Part shown: positions 5,816-63,245 of the stretch, one piece after another
Layout: every line of letters begins with the position of its first letter
How positions within the stretch are numbered: position 1 is the stretch's first letter
From: Eledone cirrhosa
Taxonomy: Eukaryota
DNA: 64,000 nucleotides
Assembly: GCA_964016885.1 (NCBI GenBank)
Contig: OZ024760.1
Coordinates: 4,836,001 to 4,900,000, forward strand
Direction of reading: 5' to 3'
The notes under the pieces: generated by a model
What the model saw: the letters and a program-made list of their open reading frames with translations, nothing else
Database searches by the model: none
What the model was told of the DNA's origin: nothing
Made by a program: the position numbers and the translations under genes

Positions 5816-6480
5816 AATTAAGTTAAAAGTGTACATCCACATATGTATACTGAAATACTAGTATGCATATAAATACACACACGTATACATATGTACATGT
5901 ACCGAGTTTTTCACTGGACACTTTACTGTGAGTGTCCAGCTAGTCTGTATGTAACCAAACAGACAAACCGGGTTTTAGAGTCATACAGGATTTCAAGGAA
6001 ACACCTTTCCTCTATTCTCCAGAGAGCCAGACAGGAATATTGGACTAGTTTCGATGTTATTACATCTCATCAGCAATATATACCCATCTTCCGGCTTCTC
6101 TAGAGAATCGTAAAAGCACATATCGTTATATGCTTTTTCTATGAAAATTAGTAGTGGGCAGACTAATTTGCATAGAACGTGAGTTGTACGCACCGGTTCT
6201 CTGGAGAATAGAGGAAAGGTGTTTCCTTGAAAACCCGTATGACTCAAAAACCCGGTTTGTCTGTTTGGTTACATACAGACTAGCTGGACACTCACAGTAA
6301 AGTGTCCAGTGAAAAACTTGGTACATGTACATATGTATACGTGTGTGTATTTATATGCATACTAGTATTTCAGTATACATATGTGGATGTACACTTTTAA
6401 CTTAATTGTTTAAGCGTCAGTCATACAAAAGTGAGTTACAAACGAAACGAAATTTAATTTTGTTTCGTTATTTGTTTTTA
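5816..6480. repeat. ~210-bp inverted repeat (5816-6028 / 6195-6407) with hammerhead in spacer; Penelope-like remnant
   Basis: Arms nearly identical; flanked by (TA)n tracts. Confidence 0.85.
6037..6079 (-). ncRNA. Minimal type-I hammerhead ribozyme
   Basis: atattg CTGATGA gatgt-aata-acatc GAAA ctag TC caatat: full core, stems I and II paired, palindromic stem III. Confidence 0.85.
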
Positions 6481-6924
6481 TATGTATATATATATATATA
6501 TATATATATATTTTTCTCTCTATTTTTCTCTATATTTTAATACATATATATATATATATGTATATATATATGTATATATATGTATATATATGTATATGTA
6601 TATATATGTATATATATATATATGTATATATATATATGTATATATATGTATATATATATATGTATATATATATGTATATATATATATGTATATATATATA
6701 TGTATATATATATATGTATATATATATATGTATATATATATATGTATATATATATATGTATATATATATATATATGTATATATATATGTATATATATATA
6801 TGTATATATATGTATATATATATATGTATGTATATATATGTATATATATATATGTATATATATGTATATATGTATATATATGTATATATGTATATATATG
6901 TATATATATATATATATATACATA

Positions 6925-7540
6925 TCAGGTCACCAGTTGGTGCTACTGGTAACATGTATCCCAGTACAACTTGTCCCATGGTCGGGTCGTTGGCGACTAA
7001 ACTGGCAACCCCGCCAAGGTTTCTTGGTGAGGAGGGTGACTTTGGACATCCTGCAGGACTAAAAACAAAACCTGTCAAAGGGCAAAGGAACTCTTAAGAG
7101 TCAATGGCCATCCAAAATCACTGGGAGAGATGACCCCTTAGCCTTTGTCAAGGCAGAATTCTAGGAGGAAAACTAGAAGGAAAACTCTGATATAACACCT
7201 GCAACCCTGATGGTATCCAATGATGTTGACTTGTTCTTCTTTTTGGTAAATATCATCTTGGTTAAGAGAGTGGGACTGGCTTTGTGCAGTGCCTTTGCTC
7301 ACTATAAAAGCTTCACGGCACAGGCATTGCTTTGTATCTGGAGATCTCTCTGCACTTGTCATCACAGGGTACCATGGGCCCAGCACTATGTGTCAGTAAT
7401 TGTCACAAGTGTAGTGTTTGTACCAAAGTTTTCAAGTCGCTGGCTGGACTAAAAAGTCACACTCGTTCAGCGCATCAGTAGGGGTTCTCCTACATGGATA
7501 TAAAGTAGTGGCCGTACTCGAAAACGAGTTGGCAGCCACC
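6925..7540 (+). mobile_element. ~610-bp non-coding dispersed element, copy 1
   Basis: End-to-end match to 43553-44159; both copies sit in (TA)n tracts; terminal hairpins. Confidence 0.85.
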
Positions 7541-8300
7541 ATATATATATATATGTATATATATGTATATATGTATATATATGTATATATATATATATAT
7601 GTATATATATATATATATGTATATATATGTATATATGTATATATATATATGTATATATATATGTATATATATGTATATATGTATATATATATATGTATAT
7701 ATATATATGTATATATATATATGTATATATATGTATATATGTATATGTATATATATATATGTATATATATATATGTATATATATATATATATGTATATAT
7801 ATATATATATGTATATATATATATATATGTATATATATATATGTATATATATATATATATATGTATATATATATATGTATATATATATATGTATATGTAT
7901 ATATATATATATATATATATATGTATATATATATATGTATATATATATATATATGTATATATATATATATATGTATATATATATATGTATATATATATAT
8001 ATATGTATATATATATATATATGTATATATATATATATATGTATATATATATATATAAATATATAACTTTGAATAACTTTGAAATGTTTTGGCCAGTATT
8101 GGCCCAGGCCATGTCTAACTTAATAGCACCACCTGGTATTATGTATGTATGTATATATGTATTTATTTATATATATATGTATATATATATATATATAAAT
8201 ATATATATGTATTTATTTATATATATATGTATATATATATATATATAAATATATATGTATATGTATTTATTTATAATAATATATATATGTATTTATATAT

Positions 8301-61975: not shown

Positions 61976-62200
61976 TAGTTCAAACATGTTAGGACGAGTT
62001 ATCTCATCTACGACACTGAAGAGGTTAAATACGCTTATTGCTGCTGCTGCTGTTGCTGCTGCTTCTTGTTAGCGAAGACATTTGGGAACCACTGTCTTAT
62101 ACATTGTTAAGCATGCTTTGATGATTGGCTTCCATTTCTGATTGGCTTTTTTTTCTTTTTTTCATTTTGTTGTTGTTGTTGTTTGTGTATGTAATGACAG

Positions 62201-62236
62201 TCCAATTTAACAGACCAGGTCACCACAGAACCTGAT
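62201..62236 (+). CDS. Candidate 36-nt micro-exon (SNLTDQVTTEPD)
   Basis: Long T/GT-rich tract then GACAG acceptor, GTAAGT donor; phase 0-0 and open in the host gene frame. Confidence 0.45.
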
Positions 62237-63151
62237 GTAAGTAGTACGAACCCTCATATTACTCCTTTTTTACACTCTCTCTCATTCTCTCTCTCCCTTT
62301 CTTTTCCTTCTCTCTCTCTCTCTCTCTCTCTCTCCCTCTCTCTATCTCTCATTTATTTATTTCTCTGTTGTCCCATCATTCTCCAGAGATGGGCCACTTC
62401 ATGTGAAGTCATAAAATATTAAGACCAAGACGCACCCCCTCTCCCCCCCCCTCTCGCTCCAGGCAGATGTTATGACCAGTTCATAAAAAGAAAAGAAATT
62501 ATTGCTCCTAGCTCTTCCTCTACTTAAACGCTCACATATATGTATACACACACACACAGTTATATATATATATATACACGCACACACAATATTATATACC
62601 TATATATATATGAATATATATATATACACATACACACACATTTATGCTCGACCTTAGGGTTTGGGGGGTCTAGTTATGGCCACCGCTGTATAGTAAAGGA
62701 GTTGTTTCAAAACAGGCCTTTCGTTGGGCGCCAGGACAAAATTACGAAATAATCCGTTAGCCTACTGTATTTGGTTTTAATACAATGAAGAGCTCCTTTA
62801 CGTATATACACCTAAATATATTCTATTTCGGTGTTTCCTCTGCTATTACCATGGTATTTTAAATCCTATATATATATATATATATATATGTATGTATGTA
62901 TATATCATCATCGTCGTTTAACGTCCATCTTCCATGTTAGCATGGGTTAGATGGGAGTTGTCCCACTTGAGGCAAGATTGGTTGGGTGACCGTGTCTCTG
63001 GACTATCTGGCAGGTTTTCTACAGCTGGATGCCCTTCCTAACACCAATATATATATATATATATATTGGTGTTAGGAATATATATATATGTGTATGTATA
63101 TATATACTTGTTTTCTTTAGACAACAGAACATATAGTAGTACATGTGAGAA

Positions 63152-63245
63152 TACATATCTGAGGAGCTTCCGATTCCAGAGTCAGGAACGAACATAATTC
63201 AATCGTTCCTCGAGCTTATCGACAGTGAAACATATGTAATATGTA
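63152..63245 (+). ncRNA. Type-I hammerhead ribozyme with long stem II
   Basis: tacatat CTGAGGA gct...agt GAAA catatg TA atatgta; palindromic CATATG. Confidence 0.75.

Follow-up and report, generated by a model that had tools for sequence, protein, structure and literature searches.

In a 64,000-nucleotide stretch of the Eledone cirrhosa genome (GenBank assembly GCA_964016885.1, contig OZ024760.1, positions 4,836,001 to 4,900,000 of the forward strand; hereafter the window), we find eleven hammerhead ribozyme sites belonging to repeat families that we label A to I. The motifs are very likely type-I hammerheads that reside in the 3′ terminal repeats of Penelope-like elements (PLEs) and of non-coding elements likely borrowing PLE enzymes, have been left genome-wide as mostly 5′-truncated (TA)n insertions, and are predicted to cut tandem transcripts mostly as dimers. 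Directly established are the motifs, their families, the reverse transcriptase (RT)/GIY-YIG parents of families C, E and H, a tandem family A unit that lacks an open reading frame (ORF), the anatomy of the insertions and the abundance of the motif. By analogy with published systems (PMC4209133, PMC6765202), tandem transcripts would be cleaved as dimers and perhaps circularised, and reverse transcription would be primed at the (TA)n target, leaving 3′ stubs.

The original prediction for this DNA listed nine minimal type-I hammerheads, and all nine start coordinates coincide with stem I ends. On the − strand, the family A hammerhead (6037-6079) has a 6-bp stem I, a 5-bp stem II, a CUAG stem III and a GUC site, with cleavage predicted after position 6043. 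Family B is present twice, both on the − strand: copy 1 (11883-11936, AUA site) lies in a 5′-truncated element at 11837..12188 flanked by (TA)n runs, and copy 2 (16743-16798), in an element at 16698..16861, has a UAUAUA stem III and C.C at stem II pair 4. The family C hammerhead (17381-17476, +; element 17154..17488) combines a GUC site with a mismatched C3.A8 core. Family D contributes a minimal hammerhead (25711-25746, −; element 25622..25849) with an extra A after A9, an ACGU stem III and a GUU site, and family E a copy with a 12-nt deletion in stem II (28162-28192, +; element 28114..28322). The family F hammerhead (32389-32459, +) belongs to a head-to-head pair at 32287..32553. Family G (56597-56654, −; element 56403..56664) has a UGAUCA stem III and again C.C at stem II pair 4, and family H (63152-63245, +; element 63140..63290) a 61-nt stem II domain, a CAUAUG stem III and a GUA site. 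Two sites had been overlooked: a tenth, of family I, at 32906-32980 (−; element 32906..33071), in which G8 is changed to A in this copy only and the family core is intact, and an eleventh, the inverted partner of the family F hammerhead (32287-32388, −), which is 5′-truncated and ends inside stem I. Most stems III had been described as palindromic, and those at 6037, 11883 and 16743, 25711, 56597 and 63152 are; those at 28162 and 32389 are not. Because its stem III spans 6 bp and is near-palindromic, the site at 17381 is not minimal.

We scanned the window with a strict type-I descriptor that required the core, stem I of at least 4 bp, stem II of at least 3 bp, GAAA, stem III of at least 1 bp and an NUH cleavage site. 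This gave 6 matches, against a mean of 0.027 and a maximum of 1 in 300 local dinucleotide shuffles. With the requirements on core and stem II relaxed, the descriptor gave 11 matches against 0.19 (maximum 2) in the shuffles; two of these, at 25378(+) and 40891(−), are probably chance matches. Six of the nine predicted sites pass the strict descriptor. Those at 17381, 28162 and 56597 fail it, yet they belong to real hammerhead families. The first has a CUGAGAA core with C3.A8 that is common to its whole lineage; the second lacks a 12-nt piece of stem II present in most aligned family copies; and the third has U.U at the base of stem II together with one copy-specific change. An intact core is present in family copies of E, G and I, and for C only as U3-A8 in sister lineages. 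An Rfam search of the window returned no hammerhead match at gathering score, and among the best 150 of 327 matches at E≤5 the sole hammerhead row was HH9 at 6020-6092, with 32.9 bits against a cut-off of 52. That output was dominated by (TA)n matches to microRNA models, as a general repeat search was by microsatellites.

Pairing is maintained across families. A pattern that specified sequence only and asked for no pairing was applied to 2.0 Mb and returned 192 contexts in 32 clusters, which are related, are enriched for the queried families and include decayed singletons. At stem II positions 2, 3, 5, 6, 7 and 9 the two strands pair in 0.74-0.81 of clusters, compared with 0.39-0.46 when partners are drawn from other families. 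Pair 1 resembles the control (0.59 versus 0.53), with G-C at this position in 4 of the 32 clusters. Position 4 pairs in just 0.19 of clusters and shows C.C in 11, U.C in 5 and C.U in 3; our guess is that the mismatch serves a contact between stems I and II. The core was examined in a sample of 99 evenly placed 10-kb stretches (990 kb) of the 3.0-Gb assembly, where the 3-8 pair occurs as C3-G8 in 61 motifs, U3-A8 in 7, C3.A8 in 1 and U3.G8 in none, and where 39 of the 61 C3-G8 motifs have a palindromic stem III. Families D and E have one additional base between position 9 and position 10.1 as well as a G10.1-C11.1 pair, both of which are absent from B, G, H and I. The U3-A8 core has a precedent in Cercyon of Schistosoma (PMC4209133).

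All nine predicted sites, together with the tenth, fall in dispersed repeat families. First-look searches of the genome returned 1,382 candidates for family A, 92 for B, 1,446 for C, 3,436 for D, 2,186 for E, 1,547 for F, 491 for G, 2,067 for H and 1,724 for I, figures that are not copy numbers; 40 candidates were scored per family, and the 14-20 loci kept were the top-scoring matches. Within each family the elements share their 3′ end, beyond which (TA)n or AT-rich repeats follow. Inverted upstream copies were found at 13/20 loci of A, 6/16 of C, 4/14 of E, 9/14 of F, 6/14 of G and 4/14 of H. A one-ended tail is seen in families A and C, and families B, D and I show (TA)n-type ends only. Partial tandems, inverted 5′-truncated copies, a one-sided tail and (TA)n targets are marks of PLEs (PMC8557442). 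The families had been described as small and unrelated, and this needs amending: C, E and H are 5′-truncated stubs of coding elements of the 3-kb class, two of them Hydra-type, and four families have one stem II design in common.

The proposed link to PLEs is borne out in three families (C, E and H), in which RT and GIY-YIG frames lie upstream of the hammerhead on the same strand. In the window, family C is a 3′ stub with an inverted 5′ fragment bearing a 77-nt tail. An intact parent elsewhere is a 3,531-bp tandem in which the stop-to-stop frame spans 784 codons and every junction holds the family C hammerhead. The frame contains RWR, DKT, YRDD, CxCx5C, CxxC and CxH motifs and no CCHH, and these motifs, stated as Hydra features in PMC8557442, mark the parent as a Hydra-type PLE; Pfam recognized no domain at E≤0.1 in the Hydra-type protein. 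Two further family C fragments, at 27686-27768(−) and 17232-17283(−), retain the 3′ half of the hammerhead only.

For family E, four parental loci have frames of 534-613 codons with RT, a Cx4CxxC linker and GIY-YIG, and at 3 of them the hammerhead lies 170-290 nt downstream of the frame. Pfam matches to RVT_1 and GIY-YIG were obtained but are weak. The nuclease CCHH, read by eye, is present, as is a linker of the Cx2-5CxxC form. These motifs point to a parent of Neptune/Nematis type. A piece of the family E nuclease frame also occurs in the window at 13323-13654(−), at an inverted junction, with a family C-type tail attached and its hammerhead missing. The family H parent is known from its nuclease part only: in 3 of 30 loci the hammerhead is contiguous with a Hydra-type nuclease, within a shared stretch of 1.5-1.7 kb (74-78% identity), and this similarity, with a CxC linker, marks family H as the 3′ stub of an old Hydra-type PLE. 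An element protein had its best named relative in Octopus (67%). Additional U3-A8 hammerhead families were noted at L201, L208, L255, L269, L281 and L292, one of them downstream of a Neptune-like nuclease fragment.

Family A is a non-LTR retrozyme with PLE-type junctions. Its unit is a tandem repeat of 466-471 bp with 37% G+C and a longest ATG frame of 42 codons, and arrays reach about 30 units. Folded as a circle, the unit has an energy of −145 kcal/mol, compared with −97 ± 5 for 25 shuffles. In stem II an A-U pair is exchanged for U-A, and pairing is intact in all 100 listed rows. The window insertion (5816..6481, −) is a head-to-head inverted pair of 5′-truncated copies with (TA)n on both sides and an extra 3′ tail on one arm only. 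Two sequencing runs of unrecorded kind were compared with the family A unit, and one gave a 497-nt contig that repeats after 468 bases; tandem DNA and a circle would both explain it equally, and we draw no conclusion from it. Nearby in kind is a second retrozyme-like array (L218:281-3381 and L339) of 310-bp units, each with a CGCG-stem hammerhead, which adjoins a family A copy.

ORF-less, low-GC tandem units with a type-I hammerhead in each define retrozymes, and A has this organization; B, D and I are present as single units only. The longest family B copies are about 1.43 kb and lack an ORF, and no coding parent was found within 1.3 kb upstream. A Hydra-like fragment near one family B copy (L036) was considered as a parent and rejected, being out of register and probably nested. 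Family G has a unit of about 2.1 kb, also without an ORF, that occurs in partial tandems and inverted pairs; the window copy is its 3′ stub, and an upstream walk by new search revealed no coding parent in the 2.1-kb unit. Family D is old (85-89% identity) and forms a single unit of about 230-270 bp; D and I both look like old single units of 230-270 bp. The family I element in the window is separated from its own 3′ end, near 32570-32620, by a short interspersed element (SINE).

The motif is abundant throughout the genome. The 990-kb sample holds 61 C3-G8 motifs against 0-1 in five shuffles, or 62 per Mb (bootstrap 36-93); 11 of the 61 come from one 310-bp array, and 66 stretches have none. 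The density descriptor used for this count gives 7 matches in the window, one of them probably chance, where 3.9 would be expected in 64 kb (P(≥6)=0.21, P(≥7)=0.14). Since its density fits the 99-stretch sample, the window is an average sample of the genome and not a cluster, and the idea of a special locus does not hold. The predicted diversity does: 69 sampled motifs and 9 window references form 29 clusters, some singletons among which are possibly chance. Across the whole genome, an exact sequence-only pattern has 110,155 matches against 439 for its reversed control, and further exact patterns have 20,539 against 18, 9,305 against 0 and, for family C, 3,546 against 0. The sum, reached without asking for pairing, is about 143,500 against 457, or 48 per Mb, and is a floor because D, F and G types fall outside the patterns. 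A generic U3-A8 pattern shows a weak excess (14,510 versus 9,382). Published counts are 126,247 for axolotl, over 6,000 for a coral and about 5,000 for a mussel (PMC7229834), and 9,000 for Xenopus and 4,000 for coelacanth (PMC4209133). The axolotl genome measures 28 Gb, and the tenfold gap in density over axolotl is indicative only, because counting methods differ. Four very large chromosome-scale contigs (C1-C4, 379-443 Mb each, versus 22-136 Mb for the other large contigs sampled) have a motif density like that elsewhere, with 27 motifs in 30 stretches (11 from one array) versus 15 in 30.

Motifs of this kind have been published. The minimal hammerheads in the pseudo-long terminal repeats (pLTRs) of PLEs likewise are type-I with a short palindromic stem III, a short stem I and a long stem II; they too form many families per genome, mostly as single stubs, with opposite-strand pairs 100-700 bp apart and a U3-A8 variant (PMC4209133). 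Families D and E conform to the consensus given there. In contrast, the class dominant here (B, G, H, I and relatives) has neither an additional base after A9 nor the G10.1-C11.1 pair, but a 3-bp palindromic stem III and the pair-4 pyrimidine mismatch, and the genomes of that account hold 2,000-9,000 motifs each compared with over 140,000 here. The family C parent resembles the Hydra clade, including Hydra-1_Obim of Octopus bimaculoides, in its RWK-like, DKT, CxCx5C, CxxC and CxH motifs, its lack of CCHH, its (TA)n targets and a hammerhead near the 3′ end (PMC8557442). U.U at the base of stem II is common among the hammerheads tabulated there. The family C parent differs in its length of 3.5 kb with a 1.1-kb 3′ untranslated region, members of the clade being generally under 3 kb, and, relative to the Hydra rows compared, in its U3-A8 or C3.A8 core and 6-bp stem III; its hammerhead sequence is not that of Hydra-1_Obim (PMC8557442). 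Set beside the Neptune/Nematis PLEs (PMC8557442), family E, placed with them by its motifs, differs in its non-palindromic stem III, and its longest frames seen are 554-651 codons. Family A matches the non-LTR retrozymes in its tandem type-I units, 37% G+C, ORFs of at most 42 codons, self-pairing and co-occurrence with autonomous PLEs (PMC7229834; bioRxiv 10.64898/2026.07.22.740005). At 466-471 bp it is slightly above the 150-450 bp of the former and inside the 51-972 bp range of the latter. Unlike published retrozymes, it displays PLE-type inverted junctions and tails directly.

One octopus Hydra hammerhead was already listed by Craig 2021 (PMC8557442), the only relevant paper among those listed by a literature search for hammerheads in octopus. 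Cephalopods are not mentioned in the main text of PMC7229834 or among the taxa named in the compared sections of bioRxiv 10.64898/2026.07.22.740005, and a 2026 repeat annotation of O. vulgaris annotates PLEs while its main text has no match for ribozyme, retrozyme or hammerhead (PMC13282606); PMC3884650 yielded nothing further. What is added here is how numerous the motifs are, the mismatch at stem II pair 4 and the C3.A8 lineage. None of the three was found in the published accounts compared, although the stem II variant may already be described by Lunse, Weinberg and Breaker 2017 and the supplements of Cervera 2014, Cervera 2020, Li 2026 and PMC13282606 may list cephalopod motifs. A motif class with no Rfam gathering match in the window occurs about once per 20 kb, introns included.

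In the mechanism we favor, a transcript through a tandem or partial-tandem master would carry two or more hammerheads. Short palindromic stems III would pair between neighboring copies, and the RNA would be cut at NUH to unit lengths that may be circularised. The GIY-YIG domain would nick (TA)n, RT would prime there from the 3′ end of the RNA, and early stops or strand switches would yield hammerhead-bearing 3′ stubs, inverted 5′ arms and tandems. Families A, B, G and probably D, F and I would be mobilised in trans, and most single stubs would be inert and decaying, those in introns of WASHC2, the host gene described below, included.

Several points weigh against this mechanism. Minimum-energy folds of single motifs mostly lack the hammerhead shape, a result that is expected for short stems III but lends the mechanism no support. 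In vitro cleavage of comparable motifs is low even as dimers (PMC4209133), and of nine Xenopus dimer constructs one cleaved (bioRxiv 10.64898/2026.07.22.740005); for the elements described here, cleavage, expression and circles are predictions. Families A, B, D, F, G and I yielded no coding parent, the search for A, D, F and I covering the sampled loci and the upstream walk by new search covering G and H. Inverted and direct copies were absent from the 16 loci of B and the 14 each of D and I, and the loci sampled lean toward young, long-matching copies because top-scoring matches were chosen. Finally, a lineage of 827 copies has spread with a mismatched core pair.

This lineage, within family C, bears on the strongest alternative, that the hammerheads are passengers: self-cleavage would not be needed for copying, and the motif would be kept as a structural signal for RT or merely carried along. 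A C3.A8 mismatch would be expected to cripple hammerhead catalysis. Among exact family C copies, U3-A8 forms number 2,107 + 600 (2,707 with a paired core) and C3.A8 forms 827; copies with G8 number 12, and in only 2 of them is C3-G8 restored. C3 occurs in both arms of inverted pairs and in a 3.6-kb tandem, and one C3.A8 copy directly adjoins a Hydra frame (93% identity); the mismatch therefore sat in the template and was inherited. The lineage diversified after the core change: the downstream base is still ancestral in 136 C3.A8 copies, and no more than about 690, a figure obtained by subtraction and not by counting, have the derived base found in the window, which only 21 U3-A8 copies share. 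Naiads, moreover, spread without canonical hammerheads, and why PLEs carry hammerheads is called unclear (PMC8557442). On the other hand, the 3-8 pair, GAAA and NUH are kept across families and the 3-8 pair covaries, as would be expected under selection on catalysis. A copy with a broken core could also be cut in trans, in a heterodimer with one of the 2,707 U3-A8 sisters, as the double-hammerhead model would allow, and a literature search on this core pair found no paper on how far C3.A8 lowers activity. We regard the passenger explanation as unlikely.

The C3.A8 lineage may have spread because cleavage is dispensable, because a heterodimer rescues it in trans, because some activity is left, or because A8 is edited to inosine, which would restore the pair with C3. 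We advance a broader proposal only tentatively: that octopods have the highest hammerhead density recorded in any animal genome (about 50-60 per Mb, ten times axolotl), that an undescribed structural subclass with a fixed pyrimidine mismatch at stem II pair 4 dominates their genomes, and that they hold a natural knock-out Hydra-type lineage that went on transposing for at least two master generations after the 3-8 break, so that self-cleavage in cis is dispensable or supplied in trans. With an intact young tandem element and near-identical lineages of paired and mismatched core, the need for cleavage becomes directly testable.

A second alternative is RNA-to-RNA replication of the ORF-less families as viroid-like circles, followed by reverse transcription into the genome. 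The family A arrays of about 30 highly self-paired units would suit such a cycle, and retrozyme RNA has been documented in circular form in coral, mussel and axolotl (PMC7229834). The unit, however, has a hammerhead on one polarity only, tandems also arise from RT template jumps or unequal crossover, and nothing in these data shows RNA replication. We consider this improbable.

The window also contains part of a host gene, a WASHC2/FAM21 homologue, of which eight exons encoding residues 614-922 lie at 31272-57943 (+). Because more exons follow past the window end (L196, L198), the F, I, G and H sites are intronic. One exon has its best named relative in Octopus (89%), and a PDB search with one exon found nothing. 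No sequence for residues 1-613 was detected in the window or the 20 kb upstream of it, which implies a very long intron or an assembly break. Intronic inverted pairs would form double-stranded RNA. Octopods are known for heavy A-to-I editing. With at least four sites intronic in WASHC2 and the family H motif intact on the sense strand, one could picture a special cluster with a host role, such as cutting or regulating WASHC2 pre-mRNA. Yet the density of the window equals that of the genome (P=0.14-0.21), and the 40 kb of flanking DNA holds just 2 descriptor matches. Each of the sites belongs to a large family as a near-neutral copy; of the four on the sense strand, two (C and E) are damaged, and six sites are antisense. 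A host role is accordingly very hard to credit.

Chance matches in AT-rich, microsatellite-rich DNA have next to no probability: the relaxed matches at 25378 and 40891 do look random and Rfam gave no gathering match, but the excess of 6 over 0.027 in shuffles, the 990-kb sample, the 250-fold genome-wide excess over the reversed pattern, the cross-family covariation and the family membership of all nine sites refute such an origin.

The scrambled order, GAAA followed by CUGANGA, has nine matches in the window, of which two, at 39340(−) and 32681(−), lie in one SINE family. We do not call these ribozymes. The SINE copies in question, at 39270-39480(−) and 32620-32905(−), one of which splits the family I element, carry GAAA and then CUGAUGA, and the sites are probably not ribozymes because the core is mostly lost in other copies of that SINE.

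Other features of the window are RTE-like long interspersed element (LINE) copies at 45171-48293 (−), 8280-10206 (+), 20594-22410 (−) and 53323-56046 (−), one such LINE having an open 1,040-codon frame with apurinic/apyrimidinic endonuclease, RT and a PHD-like finger. Four repeats of roughly 505 bp with internal 98-bp and 25-bp tandems, in which no hammerhead core was seen, occupy 48594-50321. A tRNA-like match at gathering score, at 5523-5580 (−), is probably the head of a SINE.

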